Source of the DNA: Pseudomonadota bacterium
GTDB lineage: Bacteria > Pseudomonadota > Gammaproteobacteria > UBA4575
DNA length: 49,878 nt
NCBI GenBank assembly: GCA_039030355.1
Contig: JBCCEI010000001.1
Coordinates: 1-49,878, forward strand
Reading direction: 5' to 3'
Shown: positions 6,690 to 24,783 of the stretch, in pieces
Layout: each line of letters starts with the position of its first letter
Numbering within the stretch: the first letter of the stretch is position 1
Notes under the pieces: generated by a model
What the model saw: only the letters and a program-made list of their open reading frames with translations
What the model was told of the DNA's origin: nothing
Database searches by the model: none
Made by a program: the position numbers and the translations under genes

Positions 6690-6700
6690 AAATTATTGCT

Positions 6701-7306: not shown

Positions 7307-7343
7307 TGGATTTCCTAAAATTTGTTGATTAACTTATTGACAG

Positions 7344-7450: not shown

Positions 7451-7836
7451 CAATTTGCATATTTATTTGATAATGCTGAAAAAGCTACAGAAGATAAAAA
7501 TCCAAAAACTATCGAACTTAAATAAATTGGTATCAAATTAGGCCAAATAACATCGCCGTATATGGTACTTGTTAAATCAAGTAACAAGGTAAAACTTAAT
7601 CCAACTATTGGGACAATAAAACCATACATAGATACACTTAGCTTTTGTTTCCAGCCAAAAATTGCTCCTCCAACTATTGAACCTGCTTCAGCAGGATCTG
7701 GAATAAAGTAGCAATAGATTGGTGAACTATGTAGCCACCCACACAAGTTTATGTAAATCTTCCACCCAATTACATAAATTATGAGAAATACAAAAATAGC
7801 AATTAACAACTTTACAATTGGCAATTTTTGAATCAT
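7450..7836 (-). CDS. Small integral membrane protein (128 aa, about 4 TM)
   Basis: Four hydrophobic segments. No motif recognised. Bounded by repeat units. Confidence 0.55.
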   Translation of the reverse strand: MIQKLPIVKLLIAIFVFLIIYVIGWKIYINLCGWLHSSPIYCYFIPDPAEAGSIVGGAIFGWKQKLSVSMYGFIVPIVGLSFTLLLDLTSTIYGDVIWPNLIPIYLSSIVFGFLSSVAFSALSNKYAN

Positions 7837-7851
7837 TGATTTTTCTACTCA

Positions 7852-7882
7852 ATATGTCCGCTTTGGGTCGTTAGCCGTCAAT
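7852..7882. repeat. Single, partly degenerate hairpin unit of the islet repeat family
   Basis: ATGTCCGC (7854-7861), loop TTTGGGTCGTTA, GCCGTCAA. It sits between the stop of ORF 7892..8311 and the start of ORF 7450..7836. Confidence 0.7.
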
Positions 7883-7891
7883 TATCTAGGA

Positions 7892-8311
7892 TCACCAAGG
7901 ACCTCTTAAATTTATATCTACGCCCTCGCCAGCAGGAGTCATTTTTATTGTATATGCGACTTTTTGCCCATCTACCCTTTCAACAATCCAAGTTTCAGTA
8001 ATAGAAGTAGTATCTTTCTTCAATAAACGTGTTTCAATAATTTTTCCACTTGCTTTTCCTTCTCCCAACTCGGCTTTTGTTATTAAATCTTCAATATCTT
8101 TTCTTAGCGTAGGATCTGCTACTGTGGGGGTAACTCTTCCAAGTGGGTATTTTTCCATTATTACACCACCATTCACATCTTTTGATGTCCACCGATAAGG
8201 CGAACCATCTTGCTCTAACTTGTCATTTAGATCATTGACAGCATTGTGAACTGATGTATTCGCACATCCATATAGTGTAAAAACGAAAAATAGAGATAAT
8301 AAAAATTTCAT
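7892..8311 (-). CDS. Lipoprotein, function unknown
   Basis: Lipobox FTLYGC after a signal peptide (MKFLLSLFFVFTLYGCAN). The start was moved to the ATG at 8311; the ORF-track start at 8341 is a TTG. Confidence 0.6.
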   Translation of the reverse strand: MKFLLSLFFVFTLYGCANTSVHNAVNDLNDKLEQDGSPYRWTSKDVNGGVIMEKYPLGRVTPTVADPTLRKDIEDLITKAELGEGKASGKIIETRLLKKDTTSITETWIVERVDGQKVAYTIKMTPAGEGVDINLRGPW

Positions 8312-8359
8312 ATATGCCCCACGAGAAAAATAAATTAACAAACTTACTTGACGATAACT

Positions 8360-8477
8360 AAAATGTCCGCTTTGGGTCGTTAGCAGACATTTTAGAAGTG
8401 TTGTTCAGAGTTTCCAACCAGACTTCCCCTTATTTAACCTTCATTATGACCTCTTTCGGCCAATAGCGGACATTTTA
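8360..8477. repeat. Full (two-arm) copy of the islet repeat
   Basis: Left arm AAAATGTCCGC-TTTGGGTCGTTA-GCAGACATTTTA (8360-8394). Central TTTCCAACCAGACT. Right arm ATGACCTC-TTTCGGCCAATA-GCGGACATTTTA (8446-8477). The outermost 12 nt of the two arms are perfect inverted repeats of each other. Confidence 0.8.
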
Positions 8478-8480
8478 CTA

Positions 8481-8930
8481 TTATTTGTTATTTCTGAGAG
8501 TCTTATTATATCTGCCTGCAATTAAGTACCAACAACAATAAGAAGTCACAACAGCAATTATAGGTAATAGCAGAAAAAGAAAATACTCAATCCAATCTCG
8601 AAAACTTTCAGGAAGTTTGTAATTTAATGAATATATAAAAAAAGCAAAAGTTAAAATAATAGATAATAAAATTGGGGTTCTCACAAACATCCAAAAATTT
8701 AAGCAGTCGTTAATTGAAAACTTTTTAGCACGGTCTATTACAGTAGCAATGAATACGCTAGCAAATACAGAATAAACCAAATAGATAATGACTAAGATAG
8801 GACCCCATCCTAGACAGCCAGGCCCAATGTCACATAACGTTCCTAAGTAGTGGTAAATTAAGTAAACAGCGATAAATCCAATGATAGGTGCGAGCAATGT
8901 TGCTACCCATTTCCGGTACTTATCTGACAT
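8481..8930 (-). CDS. Integral membrane protein (149 aa, about 4 TM)
   Basis: Hydrophobic segments throughout. No motif recognised. Bounded by repeat copies. Confidence 0.55.
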   Translation of the reverse strand: MSDKYRKWVATLLAPIIGFIAVYLIYHYLGTLCDIGPGCLGWGPILVIIYLVYSVFASVFIATVIDRAKKFSINDCLNFWMFVRTPILLSIILTFAFFIYSLNYKLPESFRDWIEYFLFLLLPIIAVVTSYCCWYLIAGRYNKTLRNNK

Positions 8931-8943
8931 GATTCTCTATTTT

Positions 8944-9078
8944 ACATTTGTCCGCTTTGGGTCGTTAGCAGACATTTTACTCTTGAGCATTGATCTAACC
9001 AACCTGACTCTAATCAGTACGCGTCATCCAAGACGCGACTCATATTCGCACATCCATGTGCTTACCCAAAGGACATGG
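8944..9078. repeat. Third full, expanded copy of the islet repeat; contains the right copy of the 21-bp inverted repeat (9038-9058)
   Basis: Left arm TTGTCCGC-TTTGGGTCGTTA-GCAGACATTTTA (8948-8979). Central CCAACCTGACT (8999-9010). An inserted CGCGTC..GACGCG hairpin (9021-9038). Then actcatattcgcacatccatg and an inverted arm ATGTGC-TTACCCAAA-GGACAT (9056-9076). Confidence 0.7.
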
Positions 9079-9110
9079 GGAGAAGAATGATGAAATCATT
9101 CTTCTCCCCA
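9076..9110. repeat. Perfect 16-bp-arm palindrome overlapping the stop codon of ORF 9096..9707
   Basis: tggggagaagaatgat (9076-9091), loop gaa, atcattcttctcccca (9095-9110). The right arm encodes the last residues, WGEE-stop, of the minus-strand gene. Confidence 0.85.
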
Positions 9111-9707
9111 TACACCACTCTCAGGTATTGGTGGTGGTGCAAAATCGGTTTCATCTAAAGCTGCACTTTGTCCTTTAAACACTCGTTTAAGTGCTAACAA
9201 CATTTTTGGAATCTCGGAATCAATTACGTAATCAGGAATCCATTTGTTATCTTTTTCACCCATTACTTCTTGCACATGGTTTCCTGCTATGCGTCGCATG
9301 GAATAACTTGGTCCATCTTCGTTTGTAAAACCACAGTCGGAATATTCGTTCATTCGTTCGTTTAATAAATTAATAAAATTGGAACGATATTCGCCTTCTT
9401 GCACATCGGAACGGTTACTTTGCATGGTGTCGGCTAAATGTTGACCCAATGCATTAATGAAAATTTCACGTTCGGTTGCGGTCATGTCATCAAATACCAT
9501 GCGATCAGCCACATGTGCGCCAAAGGCCACAAACTCTGCAATGACATCTAAACGCTGAAAACGCGATACGGTTTCAAACCCTTCATTTTCTAAAAATAAG
9601 CAGGACTCCCCTGCTAATACCCATAGATTAAAACCAATCACCCCAGCAATTTCTTCTGGCTTGCGCTTTCTATCCGCCTGATTCCATTTGGTTTTTAATC
9701 GTGCCAT
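9096..9707 (-). CDS. Conserved-looking hypothetical cytoplasmic protein (203 aa)
   Basis: Long ORF with normal codon texture, divergent from ORF 9777. No motif recognised. Confidence 0.6.
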   Translation of the reverse strand: MARLKTKWNQADRKRKPEEIAGVIGFNLWVLAGESCLFLENEGFETVSRFQRLDVIAEFVAFGAHVADRMVFDDMTATEREIFINALGQHLADTMQSNRSDVQEGEYRSNFINLLNERMNEYSDCGFTNEDGPSYSMRRIAGNHVQEVMGEKDNKWIPDYVIDSEIPKMLLALKRVFKGQSAALDETDFAPPPIPESGVWGEE

Positions 9708-9776: not shown

Positions 9777-10820
9777 ATGAATAAAACGACCCACCCACTT
9801 TGCGAAACCGTGCAAAAGAATTGTGATATTTCTGATGCGCATCATGCTGCGAATTACACCTTATGCGTTTACCTACTTAAAATGCGCGAATACTATCGAT
9901 GGGAAAATGGTTTTTCTTATAGTGACAACTTGCCAAAAGAAGATGTTGGTAACTGGGTGCAAGAACGCGAAACTCTTTGGGAAGAAATTGAGAATCAATC
10001 ATTTATTCCATTAAAGATTGATAACAAAGAATACGACCCGTTTGATACTGAGAATATAAATAAAGCACTCGCCCCCAAAGGCTACGTTTATAGTGGCGGT
10101 ACAGGTATGCGCTCCGCACCGCATTTCTTTTTAGCCAAGCTTGAAGAAAAACAAGAGTATAACGATTTCACCATGTACGTTTCGGCTGATGAATGCGCGC
10201 GCGACCTCACTGCACCTCCCGCAATGACTCAAGGAAAAAATGTTTTCATCAGGCGTGAAGCATTAAGACGCTATTTATGGGAAAAGTTTACAGAATGGCA
10301 ATGGCACAAGTATGAAAATGCCATGTCACGAGCCTTATCTTTTTATGATTTTGAAAACGATGTGGATCATGCGCTTGATCAAATGACCGATAATGAACTG
10401 GAAGCGGTCACACTGCACGAAATTGGCGAATTTATTGCCACCAAAGAATTAGGTGACGATTGGCGCGAAATGATCGTAAACTTACCTCGCTCACGCGCAG
10501 AATTTTTAGCAAGAGCGGTAAAAGATTTACTTGCAGACTGTTTGTCTACTCTTCCCGGTTTAATTGAAAATTATAATCCTGCTTCATTACATTTTTATGC
10601 GGCAAACTTGGTTACAATGCGAAAGGAGTTATTCCCTAGCTTTCATAACGCTTACCAAACCTGGGTAGAAACTGATGACCTCAAACCATTAAAGTCTCTT
10701 GTTGCCAAAGGCACACAACATTGGAGATCGCTCGCGAATGAAATGCTTGCAAATCATCGAAGCAATAATGAATTTGATTTAAAAAAATTAGAAGATCTTG
10801 TACAAAGTAATACACTATAA
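9777..10820 (+). CDS. Hypothetical protein (347 aa), translationally coupled to a 2OG-Fe(II) oxygenase
   Basis: Long ORF. Its stop lies 2 nt before the next ATG. No catalytic motif recognised by eye. Confidence 0.6.
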   Translation: MNKTTHPLCETVQKNCDISDAHHAANYTLCVYLLKMREYYRWENGFSYSDNLPKEDVGNWVQERETLWEEIENQSFIPLKIDNKEYDPFDTENINKALAPKGYVYSGGTGMRSAPHFFLAKLEEKQEYNDFTMYVSADECARDLTAPPAMTQGKNVFIRREALRRYLWEKFTEWQWHKYENAMSRALSFYDFENDVDHALDQMTDNELEAVTLHEIGEFIATKELGDDWREMIVNLPRSRAEFLARAVKDLLADCLSTLPGLIENYNPASLHFYAANLVTMRKELFPSFHNAYQTWVETDDLKPLKSLVAKGTQHWRSLANEMLANHRSNNEFDLKKLEDLVQSNTL

Positions 10821-10822
10821 AT

Positions 10823-11416
10823 ATGTCTTCCAAACCATTACAGACCATCCAAGAGGTCAAAGCGAATAGTTTTGTTTTTGAAAAACATGATGCACTCAGT
10901 GATGATTGTTGCACAGATATCGTTAAACGTTTTGAGCAAGACGAAGAAGGTCAATATAAAGGTCGCATTGGCCAACATGCTAATGAAGATAACAGTATTA
11001 AAAAATCCACTGACCTTGTGGTAAGTGGTAAAGATCATTGGAAAGATATAGATAAAGCATTATTTCAATCATTAGGAAAAGCGGTTTTAGAATTTAGAGA
11101 AACCTATCCTTTTTTTAAAGGCCCTTTCAAAGACATGGGCTATGGGGTGCAACGCACCAATGCAGGCGAACACTATCATTGGCATATTGATGGGGGCAGC
11201 CATGAATTTAGTCATCGTCAGCTTGTCGCCATTTGGTATTTAAATAATGTTGCTGGTCCAGGCGGGGAAACTGAATTTTTATTTCAAGATATCAAAATTA
11301 AACCTGAAGTTGGCAAACTAGTTTTATTCCCCCCTTTTTGGACCCATGAGCATCGTGGGGTAACGTTGAAGACAGGCGTAAAATATATTGCTACTACATG
11401 GGTCGTATTCGCATAG
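10823..11416 (+). CDS. 2OG-Fe(II) oxygenase superfamily protein (prolyl-hydroxylase-like)
   Basis: 197 aa. HxD facial-triad motif (HWHIDGG), distal His (WTHEHRG) and a basic residue downstream (VKYIATTW). Confidence 0.7.
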   Translation: MSSKPLQTIQEVKANSFVFEKHDALSDDCCTDIVKRFEQDEEGQYKGRIGQHANEDNSIKKSTDLVVSGKDHWKDIDKALFQSLGKAVLEFRETYPFFKGPFKDMGYGVQRTNAGEHYHWHIDGGSHEFSHRQLVAIWYLNNVAGPGGETEFLFQDIKIKPEVGKLVLFPPFWTHEHRGVTLKTGVKYIATTWVVFA

Positions 11417-11421
11417 TTTTT

Positions 11422-11871
11422 ATGTCAATTGTTTATCGATCCCCAAATACAAACGATGAATTTGAAAAATATTTTAAATTTCGCTGGGAAATACTGCGCA
11501 AACCTTTAGGGCTTGCACTTGGCAGTGAACAAGATAGATTTGATACTACTGCTTTTCATATAGCTGCTTTTAAAAATCAAAATATTATTGGCGTTGGGCG
11601 AATTCAAATTGAGAATGACAAAACTTCTCGCATTCGTTATATGGCAGTAGATGAAAAATTTAGAATGCAAGGAGTTGGCAGCTGTATGCTAAATGAATTA
11701 GAAGCAATTTCTTACAATCACAGCATTCAGATTTGTTGGCTATACGCGCGAGATAAAGCTGTGAAATTTTATTTAAAAAATAATTATGAAGTTAATGGTA
11801 TCGCTGATTCTGAGCTAGAAATTCCACACCAGCGCATGCAAAAAACACTTAGCCCATCACTAGCTCTGTAA
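11422..11871 (+). CDS. GNAT family N-acetyltransferase
   Basis: About 149 aa from the ATG at 11422. Acetyl-CoA motif A region (MAVDEKFRMQGVGSCMLNELE). The start was moved from the ORF-track 11398 to avoid overlapping the preceding gene. Confidence 0.7.
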   Translation: MSIVYRSPNTNDEFEKYFKFRWEILRKPLGLALGSEQDRFDTTAFHIAAFKNQNIIGVGRIQIENDKTSRIRYMAVDEKFRMQGVGSCMLNELEAISYNHSIQICWLYARDKAVKFYLKNNYEVNGIADSELEIPHQRMQKTLSPSLAL

Positions 11872-12172
11872 GCGTCATATCTCCAGATGTATCAATATCT
11901 ACAGCCTGAATACCAGGTATTTTATTTAAAATATACGCCGCCATTAGTCCTACGGTAGCCGTTTTTTCTTGCTGAATTGCAGTCAACATTTTATCCGCAA
12001 CAATTTGACAACGCTGAGTAGTATTTGGCGATTCCACCCAAGAACGGCTCATTTGCCAACCTTGATCCATGTCAGCGTCCATTTTTACAAACATTTCCTG
12101 GCCACTTGCAATCATGTCTTCCTCTATTTCAAGTGGAAATGTTTTTTCATCAATCGTTACTTTAAGTATCAT
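11849..12172 (-). CDS. Hypothetical protein (107 aa)
   Basis: ORF convergent with the GNAT gene (23-nt 3-prime overlap) and divergent from the PKHD hydroxylase gene. No motif recognised. Confidence 0.45.
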   Translation of the reverse strand: MILKVTIDEKTFPLEIEEDMIASGQEMFVKMDADMDQGWQMSRSWVESPNTTQRCQIVADKMLTAIQQEKTATVGLMAAYILNKIPGIQAVDIDTSGDMTLTELVMG

Positions 12173-12230: not shown

Positions 12231-12902
12231 ATGTTAGTACAGATCAGGCATATTCTTGGAGATACTGAGCTCAAAAATGTTAATGAATTATTAGAAACAG
12301 CTAAGTACCGAGACGGTCATCTTTCAGCTGGCATGGTGGCCAAACAAGTCAAAAATAATCAAGAAGTTTCTGATGAAAATGTTATTTCGACTTTAAACAA
12401 CATTGTAATGAACAATGTTGTTCGTCATCCAACATATCAACAAGCTGCCTTACCACATCGTATTGCTGCACCATTTTATGCTCGTTACGAAACAGGAATG
12501 GAATATGGCGAACACATTGATGACCCTGTAATGGGCGCGGCGAATGAACGTTACCGCTCTGATCTTGCGATGACGATTTTTTTAAATTCACCCGAAGAAT
12601 ATGAAGGTGGTGAGCTCATTGTCAAAACGCCCTATGATGAACAAAGTATTAAATATAATGCAGGTGATGCTGTTTTATATCCCGCAACTATGCATCATCG
12701 TGTTGCCAAAATTGAAAAAGGTGTACGTTTGGTTGCAGTGACATGGATACAAAGTCTGGTACGTGATAATGAACAACGAGATTTGCTATATCAACTGAGT
12801 AAAACGCGTGAAAAGATGTTACGTACAGATCCTACATCTGAGGATACGAAAAGAATTGATAATACTTATGTCAATTTAGTACGCATGTGGAGCGAACTTT
12901 AA
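12231..12902 (+). CDS. PKHD-type Fe(II)/2OG hydroxylase (PiuC/YbiX family)
   Basis: 223 aa. N-terminal MLVQIRHILGDTEL...DGHLSAGMVAKQVKNNQEV, typical of YbiX/PiuC. HxD (EHIDD), distal His (MHHRV) and RLVAVTWIQS. Confidence 0.8.
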   Translation: MLVQIRHILGDTELKNVNELLETAKYRDGHLSAGMVAKQVKNNQEVSDENVISTLNNIVMNNVVRHPTYQQAALPHRIAAPFYARYETGMEYGEHIDDPVMGAANERYRSDLAMTIFLNSPEEYEGGELIVKTPYDEQSIKYNAGDAVLYPATMHHRVAKIEKGVRLVAVTWIQSLVRDNEQRDLLYQLSKTREKMLRTDPTSEDTKRIDNTYVNLVRMWSEL

Positions 12903-12967: not shown

Positions 12968-12996
12968 AAAAAAGCCACTCATGTGAGTGGCTTTTT
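12968..12996. terminator. Bidirectional rho-independent terminator between convergent genes
   Basis: AAAAA-AGCCACTCA (12973-12981)-tg-TGAGTGGCT (12984-12992)-TTTTT. The A-run and T-run flanks let it work on both strands. Confidence 0.8.
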
Positions 12997-13018: not shown

Positions 13019-13222
13019 TTATCGTTGCGAGCCTTTTTCTTCGTGTGCCGCATCTACAACTTCATTAGCAAGCTTTGAATATTCTTCTTTAAAACCATCC
13101 AAGTCGGCTCCATCTTCGGGTGCCCAATATGATTCTGCAGTGATTTGTCCACTTTGCTCAAGCTCAATGAACTTTTTTTGCATTTCAAGCATTCTTTCAA
13201 TCTTTTCTTGTTTGGAACTCAT
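13019..13222 (-). CDS. Small acidic hypothetical protein (67 aa)
   Basis: ORF ending just before the bidirectional terminator. Predicted helical, with no motif recognised. Confidence 0.45.
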   Translation of the reverse strand: MSSKQEKIERMLEMQKKFIELEQSGQITAESYWAPEDGADLDGFKEEYSKLANEVVDAAHEEKGSQR

Positions 13223-13315
13223 ACCAAATCCTTGATGTAATGTTACATATTAATTTAATGATTTAAGCCCCTCAGTCTGTATGCCGAATTGGGTGCGACA
13301 CATTCCAAATTTGGT

Positions 13316-13645
13316 TTAGTAACCACCTTTTCTGCGACTTTCTGGCAAACCACCTATGCGGCCCGCCTGCTTACTAGGATCTCCAGGAAACAAATCATAA
13401 AGTACTTTTGCGTCTATTTTCTTCTCACCCCAAGCTTTTGCCATCGCTTTAGTCATATTACGGGTATTTGGTTGGTTACCTGCATTGTTAATGAATTCAT
13501 CTCTGAGATAATTGATGACATCCCAATGTTTCTCACTAAGCTCAACACCTTCTTCTATAGCAATTTCTAGTGCTATATCTTCAGACCAGTCTTCGATATT
13601 TACTAAAAATCCGGATGGTGTTTTTTCGATATCACTCAAGCTCAT
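13316..13645 (-). CDS. DsrC/TusE-family protein lacking both conserved C-terminal cysteines
   Basis: 109 aa. Aligns along its whole length with the canonical DsrC in this window (GFLVNIEDWSEDIALEIA..LSEKHWDVINYLRDEF vs GYLANLNDWQPDLAEAMA..LSENHWEVINFLREYY). Its C-terminus reads PSKQAGRIGGLPESRRKGGY instead of PAKQACKYAGLPKPTGCV. AGGAG RBS. Confidence 0.8.
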   Translation of the reverse strand: MSLSDIEKTPSGFLVNIEDWSEDIALEIAIEEGVELSEKHWDVINYLRDEFINNAGNQPNTRNMTKAMAKAWGEKKIDAKVLYDLFPGDPSKQAGRIGGLPESRRKGGY

Positions 13646-13735
13646 ATTTCTCTCCTAATCTGCGATATATTTTATTACTCGTTTATAAAGTTATTGCAAA
13701 CCTAGCAGTATTTTTATTCCCATAAAGGGAGATTT

Positions 13736-14437
13736 TTACGACTCTTGTGCCTCACCGACAGCGTCGATCCCCTTATGTGGCATAAATAAGCCACATCCAT
13801 ATAACCTGCCTTCACCCAATCCATGCTGTTGTAAGTGCACAGATTCCTCAACTTCTAATCCATCAATCATCAGACTGCGTGTTAGCAAGTCATCACCTGG
13901 CATGCGCAGAATATGCGCTCTCCCACACATCATCTTTTTAACGGTTATTCCCTGTTCTTCTAGTAACTGAGCAGCATGATTTAAAAATGCCTCTTCGTCA
14001 TCCATATTATCTGTTGCGACATAGCGTGCAAAGATCGTGGTTAATGCAGAAAGTGGCTTCATATGTGGTGCACTAAGCAACAAGTCATTCCCTGCAACAT
14101 TAAGTGCCTTTCCAGCTAGATTTGATGTGTCATCGATGCGGTTTTTTGGAACACGTAACATAAAACGAGTGCGCCGAGATAAACTTAAAAGCGCATCAGG
14201 TTCCTCGGGGCGAATCCAACCATTGCCAGACTCTGCACCATGAATTAGATGAATGCCCGTTTGTGGTTCCTTTGCAAACCAAGGCAAAACCGCTTGGATA
14301 ACTTGAGATAATTCATAAGCATGATCCAATGGAAGTTGTTTGCATTGCACCTTAAAAGAAATATCAACAATATCATCAGGCACTAAATAATGTTTTTGCC
14401 TCTCTTCTTGATCATTCCAGTACATAAATCTATTCAT
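13736..14437 (-). CDS. Stand-alone Cas6/Cmx6-like (RAMP superfamily) protein
   Basis: About 233 aa from the ATG at 14437; the ORF-track start at 14440 is a TTG. C-terminal glycine-rich loop GLGEGRLYGCGLF fits the Cas6 G-h-G-x5-G-h-G signature. The N-terminal VDISFKVQCKQLPLDHAYELSQVI and the overall length resemble my recollection of the Cmx6 (type I-MYXAN Cas6) family. No other cas gene or CRISPR array is in the window. Confidence 0.5.
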   Translation of the reverse strand: MNRFMYWNDQEERQKHYLVPDDIVDISFKVQCKQLPLDHAYELSQVIQAVLPWFAKEPQTGIHLIHGAESGNGWIRPEEPDALLSLSRRTRFMLRVPKNRIDDTSNLAGKALNVAGNDLLLSAPHMKPLSALTTIFARYVATDNMDDEEAFLNHAAQLLEEQGITVKKMMCGRAHILRMPGDDLLTRSLMIDGLEVEESVHLQQHGLGEGRLYGCGLFMPHKGIDAVGEAQES

Positions 14438-14630
14438 CAATTTTATTTGCTGAAGTAAACACAGCTTCTAAAATATCTTCCCAATTTTCGGGTGTATCTT
14501 GAAATGGTGGCCGAACATCCATACGAAAAAACATTTCACCTTGTTTAACTTGTTCAGTGAGCTTGTTTTTTAACTCCTCGAAAGATTTAAGCTCATGATG
14601 CTCCATAAGCAATTCACTTAACCACAACAT
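14430..14630 (-). CDS. Small hypothetical protein (66 aa) coupled between the TauD-like and Cas6-like genes
   Basis: Its ATG overlaps the TauD-like stop (TGATG). Its stop overlaps the Cas6-like start by 8 nt. Confidence 0.5.
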   Translation of the reverse strand: MLWLSELLMEHHELKSFEELKNKLTEQVKQGEMFFRMDVRPPFQDTPENWEDILEAVFTSANKIDE

Positions 14631-15511
14631 CAGTGGTTTACCTCATTTTTAAAGATATTTGAACAATTCACACGATTATAAAATCGACCACGATATAACA
14701 ATCGTTTTTGCTTTTCATCATCTTCATATGATGTGCGTTTATGCAAAACGTTATTACAAATCACACCTTCTTTTGCATTTAATCGATAATTAAACATATA
14801 ACTGTTCTCATGCAGAATTTCAGTTAAACATGCTATTGCGTTTTCCACTTGTTTGTCTTTTTTCCAGTTTATGTTGCGCTTGCGCGCTGTATAACGCATG
14901 CATAAGTGTTCGTCGTTATCGAGATAAAACACCGGCCCAGTTTGTACTGGGCGATCATCTTCCTCATTTGCCGGAATGGTCATCACATCATCTTGCATTA
15001 ATGCACGTATGTAATCCGAGTTTTCATCGCGCAGTAAAATGTAAGCGATTTCCGGATCGAGATAAGTATTTTCACCACCACTCTTTGCAGGTCGAACACA
15101 ATGCATTAAAAACGAGTGAATACGTTGTTGTGTTGCATTGTAATAACCATCCGTATGCCAATTAAGCGCTTTACTTGTGTATGGAATGTAATTTGAGTTC
15201 TTCCCTTTGGTGTCTTCAATTGCCGAGAGGTGATCTTCGTCCGCACATATATTTGCGTCTAGTTGTTGTAGTCCTAATTGTTGAGCTAAAGCCAATATGG
15301 TTTGCCTAGGATCTGATGCTTTTTTACAGCGATAAATAACCATATTGGCTTTTTCGCAAACGCCTTTTAAACTGCTAATCTCTTTATCCACTAATTTTAT
15401 AGGGTTATTTAGCTCAATAATTAGCTCATTTTCCCGACAAGGAAAACGATTTAATTTTTGCTCACGCCATGCTTGATAAGCATGCACGTCATTTAAGAGA
15501 TAGGGCGGCAT
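14630..15511 (-). CDS. TauD/TfdA-family Fe(II)/2OG dioxygenase
   Basis: 293 aa. HxD motif in LNWHTDGYY, distal His in NNVLHKRTSY, and Arg in RLLYRGRF. First gene of the operon divergent from dsrA. Confidence 0.7.
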   Translation of the reverse strand: MPPYLLNDVHAYQAWREQKLNRFPCRENELIIELNNPIKLVDKEISSLKGVCEKANMVIYRCKKASDPRQTILALAQQLGLQQLDANICADEDHLSAIEDTKGKNSNYIPYTSKALNWHTDGYYNATQQRIHSFLMHCVRPAKSGGENTYLDPEIAYILLRDENSDYIRALMQDDVMTIPANEEDDRPVQTGPVFYLDNDEHLCMRYTARKRNINWKKDKQVENAIACLTEILHENSYMFNYRLNAKEGVICNNVLHKRTSYEDDEKQKRLLYRGRFYNRVNCSNIFKNEVNH

Positions 15512-15829
15512 GTCTTATGAGCTATATGAGCAAAATGGCTTAAATCCATGGTTCTATTATCAGTTATGGACATGGATCAAGACTACTCGCAAACCCCTAA
15601 AAATTACTTATCTCATGACTGTAATAAATCGTATCTCTGTTGGGATAAATAGTTTTTTGGGTGGCACCCAATGGTAGGGATTTAGCCTTTTTAGCCCTAC
15701 TTCTACACTTCTAACATTATGTTTTTAGGACTTTTCTGTTAAGTCCTGTTAGGTATCTATCGATTCAGATTCGTCCAGCGAATCAAGGATTTAACATTTT
15801 TCTGGTAACTAATTTTAGGAGATTCCACT
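15512..15829. promoter_or_regulatory. Divergent intergenic control region between the TauD-like operon and dsrA, with several inverted repeats
   Basis: 318 bp non-coding. Perfect palindrome TTGGGTG-g-CACCCAA (15657-15671). GTAGGG..CCCTAC (15674-15700). AGGACTT-n7-AAGTCCT (15727-15747). GATTCG-n5-CGAATC (15768-15784). AGGAG RBS before the dsrA ATG. Confidence 0.5.
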
Positions 15830-17092
15830 ATGGCTGATAAGCATCATCCTACCCCCATGCTTGATGAGCTAGAGAAAGGCCCTTGGCCAAGTTTCATTTC
15901 TGGTTTTAAACGCCTTCGCGACAACCACCCAGATGAAAGAATTAACGGTGTCGCTAATTCACTATTAGGTCAATTGGAACACTCTTATGAAACACGTAAA
16001 GGTTATTGGAAAGGTGGAACCGTATCAGTGTTTGGTTACGGTAGTGGAATCATTCCTCGCTTTTCAGAAGTTGGCGCAGCGTTTCCAGAATCAAAAGAAT
16101 TTCACACACTTCGTGTGCAACCACCTGCAGGCAACTACTACTCTACAGATATGTTGCGTCAATTAGGTGACAGTTGGGAAAAACATGGCTCTGGGCTTGT
16201 TACTTTCCATGGTCAAACCGGAAACATTATGTTTATCGGTGCAACGACAGACAACACACAACATTTCTTTGATGAAATTAACGAATACGGATGGGATCTT
16301 GGGGGTGCAGGACCATGTGTACGAACAGGAATGTCATGTGTAGGTGCGGCACGTTGTGAAATGTCTAACGCAGATGAAATGAAAATTCATCGTACGTTAT
16401 TAAATAATTTCACTGATGACGTTCACCGTCCAGCGCTACCTTACAAATTCAAATTTAAAGTTTCAGGCTGTCCAAATGATTGCATGAATGCGATTGAACG
16501 TGCTGACTTTGCCATCATCGGCACATGGCGTGACGACATGAAGGTTGACCAAGAAGAAGTTAAAAAATTCGTTAAGCGCAAAGGCCGTCAATATGTAATT
16601 GATAACGTCATCACACGTTGCCCAACAAAAGCGCTAGCGCTGAAAGATGACGACACATTAGATGTGAATAACAAAGACTGCGTGCGTTGCATGCATTGCT
16701 TGAATGTGATGGTGAAAGCGTTATCACCAGGTGATGACAAAGGTGTTTCAATCCTTATGGGTGGTAAACGCACTCTTAAAATTGGTGACTTGATGGGAAC
16801 CGTCGTAATTCCTTTCATGAAACTAGACACTGAAGAAGATTATGAAAAGATCGTTGAACTTGCAGAAGAAACCATAGACTTCTGGGCAGAAAATGGTTTA
16901 GAGCACGAACGTTGCGGTGAAATGATCGAACGTATCGGCTTAGTCAACTTCCTTGAAGGTGTTGATGTAGACGTTGATCCAAACATGGTGAACGAGCCGC
17001 GTCAAAGTTCTTATATTCGAATGGATGGTTGGGATGAAGAAGCCAAAGAATGGTTCGATAAAAAAGCTGAACGTAAGCAAGCTGTAGGTTAA
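15830..17092 (+). CDS. dsrA: Dissimilatory sulfite reductase (reverse type) alpha subunit
   Basis: 420 aa. TPMLDELEKGPWPSFISGF N-terminus, siroheme/FeS Cys clusters (CVRTGMSCVGAARC, CPNDC) and ferredoxin insert (CVRCMHC). Gene order dsrAB-EFH-C. Confidence 0.95.
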   Translation: MADKHHPTPMLDELEKGPWPSFISGFKRLRDNHPDERINGVANSLLGQLEHSYETRKGYWKGGTVSVFGYGSGIIPRFSEVGAAFPESKEFHTLRVQPPAGNYYSTDMLRQLGDSWEKHGSGLVTFHGQTGNIMFIGATTDNTQHFFDEINEYGWDLGGAGPCVRTGMSCVGAARCEMSNADEMKIHRTLLNNFTDDVHRPALPYKFKFKVSGCPNDCMNAIERADFAIIGTWRDDMKVDQEEVKKFVKRKGRQYVIDNVITRCPTKALALKDDDTLDVNNKDCVRCMHCLNVMVKALSPGDDKGVSILMGGKRTLKIGDLMGTVVIPFMKLDTEEDYEKIVELAEETIDFWAENGLEHERCGEMIERIGLVNFLEGVDVDVDPNMVNEPRQSSYIRMDGWDEEAKEWFDKKAERKQAVG

Positions 17093-17138
17093 TTAAAAGT
17101 ATTTCAATCTTTGTAAGAATTAAGCGTAGGAGAATATA

Positions 17139-18212
17139 ATGGCGCAAGAGCATCGCCCACCCATAGAGTCAGGTGTACCTGACGGATTCCAATACATGCA
17201 TCCAGTGATGCGCAAAAACTATGGTATGTGGAATTATCATGAACATCCACGACCAGGCGTTTTACTTCACGTTGCTGATAATGGCGATAAAATCTGGACT
17301 GTACGTGCAGGTACACAACGTATTCTAGATGTTTTCACACTTCGCACGTTATGCGACATTGGTGACGAGTTTGCTGACGGATATGTGCGTTTCACAATTC
17401 GTAGCAACATCGAATACATGGTGGCTGATGAAGCAAAAGTACAACCAATGATTGATAAACTCGAAGCTGAAGGTTTTGTGGTAGGTGGAACAAAAAATTC
17501 AGTCGCGATGATTTCGCACACTCAAGGTTGGTTACATTGTGATATACCAGGCACAGATGCATCAGGTGTTGTTAAAGCAATGATGGATGAACTTATTGAC
17601 GAGTTCAAAGAAAACAACATGCCTAACCGTGTACATATTACAACTTCTTGCTGTCAAATTAACTGTGGCGGTCAAGGTGATATCGCAATTAATGTGCAAC
17701 ACACCAAACCACCTAAAATAAATCATGACTTAGTCTCTAATGTTTGTGAGCGACCTTCAGTTGTAGCGCGCTGCCCCGTTGCAGCAATTCGACCTGCTAT
17801 GGTAAATGGCAAACCTTCGCTGGAAGTAGATGAGAAAAAATGCATCTGTTGTGGCGCTTGTTTCCCACCTTGTCCCCCAATGCAAATTAATGATGCGGAA
17901 CATACTAAACTTGCAGTTTGGGTTGGCGGTAATCACTCAAATGCACGTGGCAAACCAACATTCCAAAAATTAGTTGCTGCTGGCATTCCAAACAACCCAC
18001 CACGTTGGCCTGAAGCCACTGCAATTGTTAAACGCATCCTTCGTGCTTATCGTGATGATGCAAAAGATTGGGAACGCATTAACGATTGGGTAGAGCGAAT
18101 TGGCTGGCCACGTTTCTTTGAAGTTACTGGACTACCATTCACTAAGTTTCATATTGATAACTGGCGTGGTGCACGTCGCAGCTTAAATGCTTCGACTCAT
18201 ATCCGCTTCTAA
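17139..18212 (+). CDS. dsrB: Dissimilatory sulfite reductase (reverse type) beta subunit
   Basis: 357 aa. CCQINCGGQGD cluster and ferredoxin-type CICCGACFPPCP. Directly follows dsrA. Confidence 0.95.
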   Translation: MAQEHRPPIESGVPDGFQYMHPVMRKNYGMWNYHEHPRPGVLLHVADNGDKIWTVRAGTQRILDVFTLRTLCDIGDEFADGYVRFTIRSNIEYMVADEAKVQPMIDKLEAEGFVVGGTKNSVAMISHTQGWLHCDIPGTDASGVVKAMMDELIDEFKENNMPNRVHITTSCCQINCGGQGDIAINVQHTKPPKINHDLVSNVCERPSVVARCPVAAIRPAMVNGKPSLEVDEKKCICCGACFPPCPPMQINDAEHTKLAVWVGGNHSNARGKPTFQKLVAAGIPNNPPRWPEATAIVKRILRAYRDDAKDWERINDWVERIGWPRFFEVTGLPFTKFHIDNWRGARRSLNASTHIRF

Positions 18213-18229
18213 GTACATTAGGGGTTAAT

Positions 18230-18622
18230 GTGAAATTTGGAATCGTAATTAACGAAGGACCGTATACGCATCAAGCTTCGGATTCTGCATTACAATTTAC
18301 AAAAGCTGCTTTAGAAAAAGGGCACGAAATTTTTCGTGTGTTTTTCTACCACGATGGCGTAAACAATGGCACCAGTCTTGGTGTTCCTCCGCAAGATGAT
18401 CGCAACTTACCTGACGAATGGTCAGAGCTTGCTGAAAAACATGGATTAGATTTAGTTGTATGCGTTGCTGCTGCACAACGTCGCGGAATGTTGGATGAAG
18501 ATGAAAGTAAACGTAACGGCAAGACATCTAACAATCTAACCAAAGGTTTTCGTATTTCAGGCTTAGGTCAATTAATTGAAGCCGGCATTCAGGCGGATCG
18601 CCTGATTACATTTGGAGATTAG
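18230..18622 (+). CDS. dsrE: Sulfurtransferase DsrE (TusD-like)
   Basis: 130 aa with a GTG start. MKFGIVINEGPY... DsrE fold with the conserved Cys in LVVCVAAAQRRG. Position after dsrB. Confidence 0.9.
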   Translation: MKFGIVINEGPYTHQASDSALQFTKAALEKGHEIFRVFFYHDGVNNGTSLGVPPQDDRNLPDEWSELAEKHGLDLVVCVAAAQRRGMLDEDESKRNGKTSNNLTKGFRISGLGQLIEAGIQADRLITFGD

Positions 18623-18624
18623 GT

Positions 18625-19041
18625 ATGTCAGATGAAGGTGTAGTTAAAAAGTTTTGCTATATGAACCGCAAGGCACCTTACGGAACAATTTACGCGCTCG
18701 AATCACTTGAAGTTGTATTAATCGCAGCCGCATTTGATCAAGATATCAGCCTTGTATTTGCTGATGATGGTGTATATCAGTTGACTAAAAATCAAGATAC
18801 AGACGGTATTGGCATGAAAAACTTTTCTAAAACATATACAGCTTTAGGAGATTACGACATTAAAAAGATTTATGTAGAAAAAGAATCACTAGATGAACGT
18901 GGTCTATCTACAGATGATCTTCAAGCCTTGGTTTACGAAGACGAAGATGATGATTGGGCAGAAAAAAATTCATTGTTTGTCGTTGAGCGCAAAGAGCTAT
19001 CTAAAATTATTGACGAACAAGATGTCGTTTTAAGTTTTTAA
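18625..19041 (+). CDS. dsrF: Sulfurtransferase DsrF (TusC-like)
   Basis: 138 aa. DsrE/F-family fold. Starts 2 nt after the dsrE stop. Assigned by position in dsrEFH. Confidence 0.85.
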   Translation: MSDEGVVKKFCYMNRKAPYGTIYALESLEVVLIAAAFDQDISLVFADDGVYQLTKNQDTDGIGMKNFSKTYTALGDYDIKKIYVEKESLDERGLSTDDLQALVYEDEDDDWAEKNSLFVVERKELSKIIDEQDVVLSF

Positions 19042-19055
19042 CTGGAAATATAGTC

Positions 19056-19364
19056 ATGTCAACTTTACACATTGTTAATAAATCTCCATTTGAAAGAAAT
19101 TCTCTAGATTCTTGCATCAGACTTGCTGCGAAAGGCAGCTCAGTGTTGTTGTTTGAAGACGGCGTTATTGCTGCGATGCAAAACACAAAACACAGTAACG
19201 CGGTAACCGAAGCAATAGCGGATGTTTCGTTTTATGTCTTAGGTCCCGATATCAAAGCCCGTGGACTTAGTGATAGTAACGTGATTGATGGCATTAATGT
19301 CATTGATTATGACGGCTTTGTGGACCTTACGACTGCGCATGAAACTGTTCAGTCGTGGTTATAA
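19056..19364 (+). CDS. dsrH: Sulfurtransferase DsrH (TusB-like)
   Basis: 102 aa. MSTLHIVNKSPFE... TusB/DsrH-type N-terminus. Assigned by position in dsrEFH. Confidence 0.85.
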   Translation: MSTLHIVNKSPFERNSLDSCIRLAAKGSSVLLFEDGVIAAMQNTKHSNAVTEAIADVSFYVLGPDIKARGLSDSNVIDGINVIDYDGFVDLTTAHETVQSWL

Positions 19365-19407
19365 CTTTTTTATATTTTTTATAATTGTAGGTAAATAGGA
19401 GAGTCAT

Positions 19408-19740
19408 ATGCCTTTAGAAGTAAATGGTCAGTCTTTTGAAACTGATGAAGAAGGTTACTTAGCAAACTTAAACGATTGGCAACCTGACCTAGCTGAAGCA
19501 ATGGCTACAGCTGATGGTGCAGAGTTAAGTGAAAACCATTGGGAAGTCATTAACTTTCTGCGTGAGTACTATGAAGAGTATCAAATTGCTCCAGCAGTTC
19601 GTGTATTGACTAAAGCAATTGGTAAAAAACTTGGTAAAGATAAAGGTAACAGCAAATATTTATATGAGTTGTTCCCATATGGTCCTGCAAAACAAGCATG
19701 TAAGTATGCAGGCCTACCAAAACCAACTGGCTGTGTATAA
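19408..19740 (+). CDS. dsrC: DsrC, sulfur-carrier substrate of DsrAB
   Basis: 110 aa. The C-terminal arm has both functional cysteines (PAKQACKYAGLPKPTGCV). Confidence 0.95.
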   Translation: MPLEVNGQSFETDEEGYLANLNDWQPDLAEAMATADGAELSENHWEVINFLREYYEEYQIAPAVRVLTKAIGKKLGKDKGNSKYLYELFPYGPAKQACKYAGLPKPTGCV

Positions 19741-19805
19741 ATTAAAGAACCTCTAATTTATTTTGTAGCCACGTTACACGCTAAATTAATCGTTCTATAA
19801 GAAAT

Positions 19806-19835
19806 TTCAAGAAGTGGCATAAGCTGCTTCTTGAA
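19806..19835 (+). terminator. Stem-loop after dsrC (possible partial terminator or mRNA-stabilising hairpin)
   Basis: TTCAAGAAG (19806-19814), 12-nt loop, CTTCTTGAA (19827-19835). The downstream U-tract is weak, so it is probably not a full terminator. Confidence 0.35.
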
Positions 19836-19886
19836 TTACAAACATACTAAGCGATATGTTCAGTATGTATATACAAGACCCAACAT

Positions 19887-20645
19887 ATGTCTGCATTAAC
19901 CGTAACATTCACCATATTATTTTATATAGCTACTGCTGTATTTCTGATATTTGTTGCGCGTAAAGTATGGATCTATAAAAAAACACCCGCTCCTCTAAAG
20001 ATTCCTACAACACCTGCTCCAACAACAACTGCAGGTGTCGCTTTTAGAATGGTAAAAGAGGTAACCATTTTTGAAAGTTTATTTAAATCCAGCAAATGGA
20101 CTTGGTTATTTGGCTGGATTTTTCATTTTGGTTTGTTGCTCGTGTTACTCAGACATTTGCGTTACTTCATTGACCCTGTCTGGGGATGGGTTACCTTTTT
20201 ACAACCATTTGGAAAATATGCTGCATTCATGATGCTCATTGGCTTAGCGGGCCTATTCGCACGTCGTATTTTTGTGGATCGTGTACGTTACATATCTGCA
20301 CCTTCTGATTACTTAATGCTGTTATTGCTGATCGCAATTGGCGCAAGTGGTGCGCTCATGACCTTTGTTGAACATACAGATATTGTCGCACTGAAGTCTT
20401 TTCTCATCAGTTTGATGACGCCTTGGCAAGTAGGTGGTATCACACCTATGCCAAATGATTTATTACTTATTGTGCATTTAAGTTTAGTCATTTTACTTAT
20501 GATCATATTTCCATTTAGCAAACTACTGCATGCACCGGGAGTATTTTTCAGCCCAACACGCAACCAAGTCGACAATCCACGCGAACAAAGACATCTCGCT
20601 GACTGGGCTACTAAACTAGAATCTAACAAGGCTAATGCGAGTTAA
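19887..20645 (+). CDS. dsrM: DsrM, NarI-like di-heme b membrane subunit of DsrMKJOP
   Basis: 252 aa with 5-6 TM helices carrying conserved His residues (FHFGLLLVLLRH). Followed after 2 nt by dsrK. Confidence 0.9.
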   Translation: MSALTVTFTILFYIATAVFLIFVARKVWIYKKTPAPLKIPTTPAPTTTAGVAFRMVKEVTIFESLFKSSKWTWLFGWIFHFGLLLVLLRHLRYFIDPVWGWVTFLQPFGKYAAFMMLIGLAGLFARRIFVDRVRYISAPSDYLMLLLLIAIGASGALMTFVEHTDIVALKSFLISLMTPWQVGGITPMPNDLLLIVHLSLVILLMIIFPFSKLLHAPGVFFSPTRNQVDNPREQRHLADWATKLESNKANAS

Positions 20646-20647
20646 TC

Positions 20648-22201
20648 ATGGCTGCTGCAGAATTTGATACTCCTGTTCTTAATGAATATCCGCTTATTCC
20701 TCGTCTGCAAGATGATGTGATGAAACACAGCCAGCCTTATGTTGCTAAACCTGAGTTTCAAGAGAAACTTGGGTTCCCGGGCGAACTAGTTGATAACTGG
20801 GAACAAGTTGCCATCGATAAGATGGGTGAGCTCAAAGACAGATATCGCTCATTACAAGTTTTTTTAGATTCTTGTGTGAAATGTGGTGCGTGCACTGATA
20901 AGTGTCACTACTATCTTGGAACAACCGATCCAAAAAATATGCCGGTTGCGAGACAAGATTTATTTAGAAAAGTATATCGTCGTTATTACACACTCTCTGG
21001 AAAATTGTTTCCTAAATTGGTTGGCGCAGAAGACATGACCAAAGAAGTATTAGATGACTGGTATAGTTATTTTCATCAATGCTCACAATGCCGACGTTGT
21101 TCCGTGTATTGCCCATATGGAATTGATACTGCAGAAATCTCTATGGCTGCTCGTGAAGTAATGGATGCTGTTGGCCAAGGCCAAAAATACTGCAACGAAA
21201 TTATCGGTAAGGCACAAACCATTGGAAACAATCTTGGTTTACCCGAACCTGCGCTCATCGACACACTTGAAGGCCTAGAAGAAGACGTTGAAGAAGACAC
21301 GGGTGTTAAGGTTCGTTTTCCAGTGGATGAAAAAGGTGCTGAAGTATTACTTATTACCCCTTCTGCAGATTTCTTTGCCGAACCACATATCGATGGTTTG
21401 ATTGGTTATGGAAAAGTATTTCACCAAGCAGGGATCTCCTGGACATTAAGTTCTTATGCAAGTGAAGCTGCAAACTTTGGCATGTTTATCGGTAGTTATG
21501 AAAATATGCAAAAACTTGCACTACGAATTCGTCAAGCTGCGATCGATCTTGGGGTTAAAAGAATTGTATTTGGTGAGTGCGGACATGCATGGCGTGTTGC
21601 TTATTCTTTTTTAAACACCCTTGCCGGCCCGTTTGATTTTCTGAATCCAAACTATCCTGTGCCACAACATATTTGCGAAGTAACACATGGATTAATTCAG
21701 GAAGGTAAACTCACATTAGATCCATCAGAAAATGATGACATGGTAGTGACCTACCATGACTCTTGCAATGTCGCACGCGCATCACGAATGGGAGACACTC
21801 CTGGAGGTCAATTCGAGATACCAAGAGAAATAATTAAGGCGGTGTGCAACAACTATGTCGACATGCCGAGTTACGCAATTAAAGAAGGTACTTACTGTTG
21901 CGGTGGCGGTGGCGGTCTTTTAACCGATGACTTAATCGAGCTGCGTGTAAAGGGTGCGATGCCGCGCATGGAAGCCCTTAAAAATGTAGTTGACGATTTT
22001 GGGGTAACTCATATGGCTGCAATATGTGCCATTTGTAAGAGTCAGTTTTCCAAGGTTTTCCCTTACTATGACTTCAGAATGGACCAGATTGTGAGCCTAC
22101 ATCAGCTGGTTAGCAATGCGGTTGTCCTAACACCGGAGAAGACAATTGAGGGTGACGAAGAAAACGATTCTAATCATGATAGCCAAGCAGAAGCGGCTTA
22201 A
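20648..22201 (+). CDS. dsrK: DsrK, HdrD-like FeS catalytic subunit
   Basis: 517 aa. Ferredoxin motifs CVKCGACTDKC and CSQCRRCSVYCP. CCG-domain cysteines (YCCGGGGG). Confidence 0.9.
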   Translation: MAAAEFDTPVLNEYPLIPRLQDDVMKHSQPYVAKPEFQEKLGFPGELVDNWEQVAIDKMGELKDRYRSLQVFLDSCVKCGACTDKCHYYLGTTDPKNMPVARQDLFRKVYRRYYTLSGKLFPKLVGAEDMTKEVLDDWYSYFHQCSQCRRCSVYCPYGIDTAEISMAAREVMDAVGQGQKYCNEIIGKAQTIGNNLGLPEPALIDTLEGLEEDVEEDTGVKVRFPVDEKGAEVLLITPSADFFAEPHIDGLIGYGKVFHQAGISWTLSSYASEAANFGMFIGSYENMQKLALRIRQAAIDLGVKRIVFGECGHAWRVAYSFLNTLAGPFDFLNPNYPVPQHICEVTHGLIQEGKLTLDPSENDDMVVTYHDSCNVARASRMGDTPGGQFEIPREIIKAVCNNYVDMPSYAIKEGTYCCGGGGGLLTDDLIELRVKGAMPRMEALKNVVDDFGVTHMAAICAICKSQFSKVFPYYDFRMDQIVSLHQLVSNAVVLTPEKTIEGDEENDSNHDSQAEAA

Positions 22202-24774: not shown

Positions 24775-24783
24775 CGTATAATT

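Follow-up and report, generated by a model that had tools for sequence, protein, structure and literature searches.

The closest described relatives of the protein reported here are the Cas6 proteins of type I-B2/I-MYXAN CRISPR-Cas systems, represented by chain B of structures 8FCJ and 8FCU and by the cyanobacterial Cmx6 proteins. In a genuine Cmx6 locus, that of Rippkaea PCC 8801, the gene adjoins TniQ, DevT, two more genes that occupy the Cas7 and Cas5 positions, and an array of three repeats. Cas folds re-used beyond defence are also familiar from CRISPR-associated transposons and from the Cas6-like proteins of type IV systems; those, however, still use CRISPR RNA (crRNA) and repeats, whereas the loci described here hold no repeat, guide or partner Cas protein. 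The locus in question lies in a 49,878-nucleotide (nt) stretch of contig JBCCEI010000001.1, from a Pseudomonadota bacterium of the gammaproteobacterial lineage UBA4575 (the whole stretch is hereafter called the window). It encodes a Cas6/Cmx6-family protein, hereafter the Cas6-like protein, in a minus-strand operon divergent from the dsr operon of the reverse dissimilatory sulfite reductase (rDsr) pathway. Neither this association nor the protein subfamily was found described in open-access papers or bioRxiv, and the same literature gave no function for the gene combination, consistent with the preliminary description of this DNA, which had known of none. We infer that the Cas6 fold has here been exapted outside CRISPR, in an association and a subfamily that are both new to the searched literature. 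The cluster and the divergent operon are laid out as follows.

15830-28585, plus strand: dsrABEFHCMKLJOPNR operon, divergent from the cluster (open reading frames (ORFs) and Pfam)
14630-15511, minus strand: TauD/TfdA-family Fe(II)/2-oxoglutarate (2OG) dioxygenase of 293 amino acids, first gene of the operon (PF02668)
14430-14630, minus strand: s66, an acidic protein of 66 amino acids (ORF translationally coupled to both neighbours)
13736-14437, minus strand: the dsr-linked Cas6/Cmx6-family protein (PF09559, TIGR02807)
13316-13645, minus strand: cysteine-less DsrC paralogue of RspA type, 109 amino acids (PF04358)
13019-13222, minus strand: s67, an acidic protein of 67 amino acids and fifth conserved gene (conservation across loci)
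12968-12996, minus strand: terminator-like hairpin AGCCACTC-ACAT-GAGTGGCT followed by a T run, closing the unit (direct sequence reading)

The first three genes had been described as translationally coupled, and their stop and start codons do overlap. Base 14630 is common to the TGA of the TauD-like gene and the ATG of s66, and the Cas6-like ATG at 14437 overlaps the s66 stop codon (TAG, 14432-14430) by 8 nt, giving a protein of 233 amino acids. An alternative ATG at 14425, 4 nt past the s66 stop, would give 229 amino acids beginning MYWQ, the start used by most Cas6-like homologues. The DsrC-like gene follows 90 bp downstream of the Cas6-like gene. All four genes of the set originally described are thus present, but the unit is longer than had been claimed, with s67 as a fifth conserved gene and the terminator beyond it.

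Assignment of the 233-residue protein to the Cas6/Cmx6 family, proposed earlier from the sequence, was borne out by profile searches and by structure prediction. The protein matched PF09559 with an E-value of 1.2e-61 and 208.4 bits (cut-off 26.7) and TIGR02807 (cas6_cmx6) with 142.4 bits (curated cut-off 98.85); PADLOC Cas6 models matched it as well. The sole solved relative found by sequence was 8fcj_B, the Cas6 subunit from the Cascade of a type I-B CRISPR-associated transposon (E 1.5e-11). The C-terminal GLGEGRLYGCGLF, which had been read as the Cas6 glycine-rich loop, aligned with that loop (GIGGKRKMMCGIF) in 8fcj_B. An AlphaFold2 model computed with 30 homologues (predicted local distance difference test (pLDDT) 83.1; predicted template modelling (TM) score 0.81) contains two tandem ferredoxin-like domains of the RNA recognition motif (RRM)/repeat-associated mysterious protein (RAMP) kind. 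When the model was compared with the PDB by Foldseek, 8fcj_B and 8fcu_B came out on top (E 4.4e-16, TM 0.73-0.80), and the ranks below them were held only by Cas6, Cas6e and Cse3 structures, down to an E-value of about 1e-4. About 55 columns are invariant in the alignment of close homologues, and the dsr-linked protein is under purifying selection. Positions conserved to at least 80% in both the dsr-type and the Cmx6 groups include D25, D38, H63, R95, R138, Q203, G206, G208, G216, F218 and P220. With these positions and the glycine-rich loop kept in both groups, the core of the presumed RNA site has been retained, though overall charge and several loops are altered.

The dsr-linked proteins nevertheless differ clearly from their CRISPR-linked relatives. 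The two sides were compared using 100 cyanobacterial Cmx6 sequences, with motif counts for the dsr-linked side taken over 314 sequences. Mean identity was 40% inside the dsr-linked group and 64% inside Cmx6, but 24% between the groups. The median isoelectric point (pI) was 6.17 for the dsr-linked proteins (11% above 8) against 9.25 for Cmx6 (84% above 8), and that of the Cas6-like protein of the window is 5.43. The motif xGNGW occurred in 288 of 314 dsr-linked sequences and a C-terminal PHK in 267 of 314, while neither was found in any of the 100 Cmx6 proteins. The dsr-linked group also has an N-terminal MxWQE, and DHA in place of the Cmx6 DNG. Extended to xGNGWxRP, the first of these motifs forms a 9-residue insert straight after the strand that bears His63, in a low-confidence part of the AlphaFold2 model. 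The two groups therefore share family membership, the two-RRM fold, the glycine-rich loop and the residues D25 to Q203 named above, and are set apart by sequence divergence, by charge, by the insert and terminal motifs, and by genomic context: the dsr-linked proteins lie in a dsr setting without a nearby array, cas8, cas7 or cas5. That they form a subfamily of their own within Cas6/Cmx6, independent of CRISPR, is well supported.

This genomic context is strongly conserved. Homologues of the Cas6-like protein numbered 1831 in a word-indexed search and fell into 1014 representative clusters at 50% identity. Loci were drawn from species genomes (7 loci), metagenomes (80 loci) and single look-ups, and were annotated by tblastn using the proteins of the window; individual loci are given here by L numbers. 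In about 90 loci the Cas6-like cluster adjoins dsrA and is divergent from it, an arrangement that holds down to 33-36% identity of the Cas6-like protein. Nearly all sufficiently long loci show the same order, with dsrB and dsrA on one strand and the TauD-like, s66, Cas6-like, DsrC-like and s67 genes on the other, and the neighbourhood comparison proposed earlier thus showed the four-gene set to be conserved. The carriers identified are marine or sediment sulfur oxidisers and invertebrate symbionts; those named include Thiothrix, Candidatus Thiodiazotropha, Sedimenticola, Thioalkalivibrio and Inmirania, as well as symbionts of Lamellibrachia and Bathyaustriella, which are also described as tubeworm and clam symbionts. 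It is well supported that in sulfur-oxidising Gammaproteobacteria the Cas6-like gene keeps a fixed, divergently oriented place beside dsrAB.

The most divergent members vary in composition. Beside dsrA in the 33-36% identity class, Inmirania thermothiophila has DUF6967, Cas6-like and DUF6866 genes, L093 has s58, p229, Cas6-like and DsrC-like genes, and L094 has TauD, s66, p232, Cas6-like and radical-SAM genes. The TauD-like gene is present in most loci, and some loci that keep the Cas6-like gene lack the TauD-like and DsrC-like genes. In four exceptions (L049, L060, L067 and L072) the cluster is detached from dsrA. About 24 loci, roughly a quarter (e.g. L018:7258-7965), carry an extra gene of about 235 codons between s66 and the Cas6-like gene, which the window does not have; the conserved core of its product is GQGIWLxVTFPxDP...DSDGAAVAA...RRHS, and it had no match in Pfam, PADLOC or the PDB. 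Natural fusions of s66 with the Cas6-like protein were considered and rejected, since the long cluster members were frameshift or gene-calling artefacts.

Evidence for CRISPR-Cas was sought over the 50-kb contig stretch and the related loci, a scope of local sequence. Repeat scans of the window gave no tandem or CRISPR-like array, Pfam searches of its large ORFs gave no second cas family, and neither in six annotated loci nor in the window was the Cas6-like gene flanked by cas Pfam families. Across 878 kb in 96 sequences (the window and 95 loci) there were zero CRISPR arrays. When the Cas8 (DevT), Cas7, Cas5 and TniQ proteins of a genuine Cmx6 locus were used in tblastn against the window and 94 related loci, zero matches were obtained, while the Cmx6 protein from that same locus recovered the Cas6-like gene in 95 of 95. 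No cas gene or array lay within 8-10 kb of the Cas6-like gene in any locus. The earlier statement that the window holds no CRISPR array or further cas gene is in accord with all of these searches. The dsr-linked proteins are named 'type I-MYXAN CRISPR-associated protein Cas6/Cmx6' by NCBI, through its Prokaryotic Genome Annotation Pipeline (PGAP), and by the Joint Genome Institute (JGI). The PGAP name arises because these proteins pass the TIGR02807 equivalog cut-off, and judged by gene context it looks like over-annotation. Some true Cmx6 proteins are named 'Cas3' by JGI, likely an annotation error.

The partner proteins were also characterized. The product of the first gene is a TauD/TfdA-type dioxygenase, as had been read from its motifs: it matched PF02668 (E 9e-20, 72 bits), and its HxD...H triad and 2OG-binding arginine (H119, D121, H257, R270/R274) were invariant in 36 of 36 orthologues. 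Its nearest solved relatives, at low similarity, are TmpA (6npb, E 2.6e-8) and gamma-butyrobetaine dioxygenase, and it scores far under the equivalog cut-offs for BBOX, TmpA and TMLD; a single-sequence AlphaFold2 model (pLDDT 39.7) was unusable. Protein s66 has a pI of 4.6, is 45-86% identical across loci and has the core FFRxDxKPPxPDTPxNWED; its position is taken by an unrelated DUF6967 protein in Inmirania. Neither s66 nor s67 belongs to a Pfam or NCBIfam family. The s67 gene is conserved downstream of the cluster and stays put where the DsrC-like gene is inverted. Together with p107, a neighbour encoded beyond s67, the proteins s66, s67 and DsrC-like are all acidic.

The DsrC-like protein matched PF04358 (E 5e-31, 107.7 bits) and TIGR03342 (95 bits, cut-off 53.5). 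In an alignment with Allochromatium vinosum DsrC (1yx3), QAGRIGGLPESRRKGGY replaces QACRFAGLPKPTGCV and both redox cysteines are gone, as noted in the preliminary description. DsrC-type proteins lacking cysteines have been given the family name RspA (PMC8477390), and the absence of both cysteines places the DsrC-like protein in this class. It shares with RspA-type proteins the DsrC fold family and the loss of both C-terminal cysteines, but its orthologue group is distinguished by an invariant C-terminal RKGGY (71 of 71 orthologues) and by its fixed place beside the Cas6-like gene. A cysteine is found within the last 15 residues in 8 of the 71, at a non-canonical position. The RKGGY tail (window 13316-13345) occupies the position of the cysteine-bearing arm of DsrC. 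It may be a putative recognition or modification site, and its ending of GG plus one residue recalls sulfur-carrier proteins.

The preliminary description had also placed a palindrome-rich control region between the two operons. The shared 318-bp spacer between dsrA and the TauD-like gene exists, but its palindromes are modest, consisting of one of 16 bp (15632-15647) and a few stems of 6-7 bp. The elements of this region, those upstream of s67, and the regulatory genes located past the dsr operon are as follows.

15632-15647, no strand assigned: distal palindrome TATCTCTGTTGGGATA, 16 bp, read as a NarL-type 7-2-7 site and kept in about 40 loci
15665-15709, plus strand: putative dsrA promoter (layout conserved across loci)
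15665-15681, plus strand: dsrA proximal element CACCCAATGGTAGGGAT, abutting the -35
15682-15687, plus strand: putative dsrA -35-like TTAGCC
15704-15709, plus strand: putative dsrA -10-like TACACT
13252-13296, minus strand: putative s67 promoter region
13296-13280, minus strand: degenerate NarL-type element GCACCCAATTCGGCATA upstream of s67 (nhmmer match 13294-13273)
13257-13252, minus strand: putative s67 -10-like TAAATT
32333-33733: GAF/HisKA_3 sensor kinase
33730-34407: NarL/LuxR-type response regulator
34459-34920: rhodanese
35089-35874, minus strand: GAF-LuxR protein

Conserved blocks came out when the dsrA/TauD spacers of close relatives were aligned. Upstream of dsrA the conserved layout is CACCCCAWGGGTAGGRT, a weak -35, a gap of 16-17 nt, and CTAGACT or CTAGAAT. 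The distal palindrome (TATCCC-N4-GGGATA) lies about 71 nt upstream of the -10-like box in about 40 loci, and this palindrome, the CACCCCAWGGGTAGGRT element and the -10 box are kept upstream of dsrA from SUP05-like loci to Inmirania. A similar arrangement precedes s67: in 36 loci a TAnnnT box (such as TATAGT, TATAAT or TATATT) comes 22-23 nt after an element of the form yCCC-N4-GGGATA. The near-invariant spacing to this -10 box indicates that the motif abuts a weak -35, and s67 apparently has its own promoter. An nhmmer profile seeded with 23 motif instances from upstream of s67 and searched over 829 kb gave matches almost confined to the dsrA/TauD spacer, on both strands, and to the region just upstream of s67; 90 of 120 matches were concentrated in 3.5% of this length (binomial P about 6e-104), a count in which 23 matches are the seeds themselves. 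The variants TATCyC-N4-GrGATA and TACCCC-N4-GGGATA occur in about 40 loci. A conserved promoter on the TauD side, downstream of the distal palindrome, was sought and rejected, as no fixed geometry was found.

The high-affinity 7-2-7 site of NarL is TACCCCTAAAGGGGTA, and its activator sites span -38 to -49 (PMC4549865). The palindromes of the control region, such as TACCCCATTAGGGATA and TATCCCGAACGGGATA, resemble this NarL/NarP operator and lie at about -37 to -52, where NarL activator sites lie. The HisKA_3 kinase and GerE-type regulator past the dsr operon likewise recall NarX/NarL control, with the difference that the targets here would be the dsr operon and s67 rather than nitrate-respiration genes and that the sensor has a GAF domain and lies beside a rhodanese. 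The genes at 32333-35874 are candidate regulators of the 7-2-7 sites upstream of dsrA and s67; in Inmirania a LuxR-type regulator lies 3 kb from the Cas6-like gene. From the match to TACCCCTAAAGGGGTA and the promoter-abutting position, we infer that the palindromes are DNA operators of a NarL/LuxR-type response regulator that would activate dsr and s67, and not Cas6 substrates. In the detached loci L067 and L072 no palindrome site lies upstream of TauD, which ties the sites to dsrA and s67 and not to the Cas6-like operon. A comparison of G-U with A-C asymmetry, contrasting RNA stems with DNA palindromes, had palindrome stems of only 3-6 bp to work on. DNA binding by A. vinosum DsrC was reportedly described by Grimm and co-workers in 2010; the DsrC-like protein as operator-binding factor was considered here, but lost weight once the palindromes had been matched to the NarL 7-2-7 site and NarL-type regulators had been found nearby.

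A Cas6 fold without nearby CRISPR, placed beside dsr in about 90 loci, points to a protein that has probably been re-used in some capacity within sulfur metabolism. Our tentative proposal, in which doubt slightly outweighs confidence and which draws on sequence comparison and the structural model, is that the Cas6-like protein may serve the dsr system as a factor that binds or processes RNA independently of CRISPR. Since the two-RRM Cas6 fold is kept together with His63, Arg95, Arg138 and the glycine-rich loop, it would be expected still to recognise, and perhaps to cut, a specific RNA stem-loop. In complex with s66 it might tune the stability or translation of sulfur-oxidation transcripts, with the long dsrA leader and the polycistronic mRNA of its own operon as candidate targets, and the AESGNGWxRP loop right after His63 may adjust specificity or the binding of partners. 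A NarL-type response regulator on the 7-2-7 operators would separately drive transcription of dsr and s67. More speculatively, the module could tie dsr function to oxygen through the three O2-dependent 2OG oxygenases of the conserved neighbourhood, the TauD-like protein included.

Regulation of dsr after transcription, by DsrR/DsrS of A. vinosum, was reportedly described by Grimm, Franz and Dahl in 2011; it offers a precedent for such control, although those proteins are unrelated to the Cas6-like protein. The window also carries dsrR, together with an ORF where dsrS would lie. That the Cas6-like protein controls dsr mRNA after transcription, raised earlier as speculation, is a possibility. 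The predicted dsrA 5' leaders (window about 15716-15829 and its equivalents in 31 loci, 77-197 nt long) have a slight folding advantage over dinucleotide shuffles (mean z -1.04, P 1e-4), which is weakly compatible with a post-transcriptional model. Several of these leaders have an ACGCGT-like motif after a hairpin.

A number of results weigh against an RNA role. The spacers between the Cas6-like and DsrC-like genes and between the DsrC-like gene and s67 showed no folding advantage over shuffles (mean z +0.14 for the first and -1.2 for the second), and no conserved RNA hairpin that could serve as substrate was found in the intergenic regions of the operon; nor did the window give any Rfam match. 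The only recurrent stem-loop-like motif appears to be accounted for by the promoter-proximal NarL-type DNA operators. The acidic charge, a whole-protein pI that does not describe local patches, argues against a broad RNA-binding surface, and because it is unlike that of Cmx6, retained RNA binding is only plausible. A catalytic role for His63 is itself an assumption in Cmx6.

Some of the same observations suit the main rival explanation, that the Cas6 fold has been re-used as a protein- or ligand-binding module with no RNA role, which we consider rather unlikely; an example would be an adaptor or chaperone that would work with s66 and the TauD-like protein on the DsrC-like protein (such as its RKGGY tail) or on DsrAB or DsrEFH. 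An acidic pI unlike that of Cmx6, small acidic partners typical of protein-protein networks, the strictly kept DsrC-like tail and the failure of Rfam searches and spacer folding to find an RNA substrate would all fit it, as would the position of xGNGWxRP, the top conserved motif of the subfamily, in a low-confidence loop of the monomer model, where a partner-binding element might be expected. Against this, the glycine-rich loop and the His and Arg residues common to RNA-binding Cmx6 are kept under selection, and some loci keep the Cas6-like gene without the DsrC-like gene and TauD.

Two further explanations concern what the Cas6-like protein binds and where it belongs. That it recognises the CCC-N4-GGGATA palindromes itself, as DNA or as transcribed hairpins, and so controls dsrA and s67, seems very improbable. 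Like the Rippkaea repeat hairpin UGCC-GUUA-GGCG, the palindromes do have the shape of a Cas6 substrate, with a tetraloop on a G/C stem of 5-6 bp; no locus type is without them, not even the minimal Inmirania cluster, and the s67 site falls within any read-through transcript of the operon. Their fixed place 22-23 nt upstream of a conserved -10 box, abutting the -35, their match to the NarL consensus in the interval of NarL activator sites, the NarL-type regulator and HisKA_3 kinase encoded just past the dsr operon, the missing site upstream of TauD in the two detached loci and the acidity of the Cas6-like protein all argue against such recognition. We give least credence of all to the idea that the gene is a normal cas6 which became separated from a type I-B2/MYXAN CRISPR-Cas system encoded at another place in the genome. 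Database naming and the TIGR02807 score agree with such an origin, and the genome beyond this contig was unseen; yet synteny with dsrA is fixed over about 90 loci in many genera, the sequence has diverged from CRISPR-linked Cmx6 in mean identity and in the xGNGW and PHK motifs, the charge is opposite to that of Cmx6, and the surroundings of the gene are free of cas genes and arrays within 8-10 kb in every locus. Beyond the tentative RNA-factor proposal stands a wider claim that we regard as doubtful: that the Cas6 subfamily as a whole has abandoned CRISPR immunity and become dedicated to regulating dissimilatory sulfur oxidation by binding or cleaving RNA. In marine sulfur oxidisers, both free-living and symbiotic, it would then couple the expression or activity of rDsr to oxygen, together with a small partner protein and oxygenases that depend on O2.

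Further conserved genes usually follow s67, in the order PKHD-type 2OG hydroxylase, p107, GNAT, second 2OG oxygenase, DUF6866 and p203. Their linkage to the cluster is by synteny only; in the window they are located as follows.

12231-12902, plus strand: PKHD-type 2OG hydroxylase, conserved neighbour (Pfam)
11849-12172, minus strand: p107, conserved neighbour
11398-11871, plus strand: GNAT protein, conserved neighbour (Pfam)
10823-11416, plus strand: 2OG oxygenase, conserved neighbour (Pfam)
9777-10820, plus strand: DUF6866 protein, conserved neighbour (Pfam)
9096-9707, minus strand: p203, conserved neighbour

In L010, the most distant locus examined, a homologue of p203 (626-1144) comes directly after the Cas6-like gene; in L092 and L093 one lies near it. 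DUF6866 and p203 had no significant PDB match in profile and sequence searches, and none of the cluster neighbours had a PADLOC match. In some close relatives (L011:13208-15586, L013:7402-7896) an extra gene for a DsrL-like flavoprotein and a further DsrC-like gene are found within the set of neighbours. An inverted repeat, perfect over 17 bp and with a loop of 3 nt (ATGGGGAGAAGAATGAT / ATCATTCTTCTCCCCAT; window 9075-9111), overlaps the 3' end of p203 and is probably a terminator.

Processing of the hairpin repeats at 6.6-9.1 kb had been suggested as another role for the Cas6-like protein. Seven copies of a palindromic repeat of about 36 nt (consensus AATGTCCGCTTTGGGTCGTTAGCAGACATTTT) lie at 6654-8977, partly as inverted pairs 73-83 nt apart, and divide unrelated small ORFs of the minus strand, which encode putative membrane proteins or lipoproteins without a Pfam family; in its arrangement the stretch resembles a cassette array or a repetitive extragenic palindromic (REP)-like islet. 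The repeat was absent from 95 of 95 related loci, so that it is not a conserved partner of the Cas6-like protein and its processing by that protein is unlikely. At 5695-6516 the window encodes a protein of 273 amino acids with a DnaJ (J) domain, a Cys-rich segment and a C-terminal PilZ domain, an unusual architecture.

These results bear on how the genomes of sulfur oxidisers are read. 'Type I-MYXAN' labels on hundreds of dsr-linked proteins inflate the counts of CRISPR-Cas systems in these organisms. For dsr regulation, the NarL-type operators and the GAF-domain kinase/regulator pair beside the rhodanese are testable candidates. Beside dsrAB lies an accessory module absent from the searched literature, comprising the Cas6-like protein, s66, the RKGGY-tailed DsrC paralogue, s67, three 2OG oxygenases, DUF6866 and p203. 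If the proposed re-use is true, it would be a clear case of the Cas6 endoribonuclease fold serving in core energy metabolism, without repeats, guides or partner Cas proteins.

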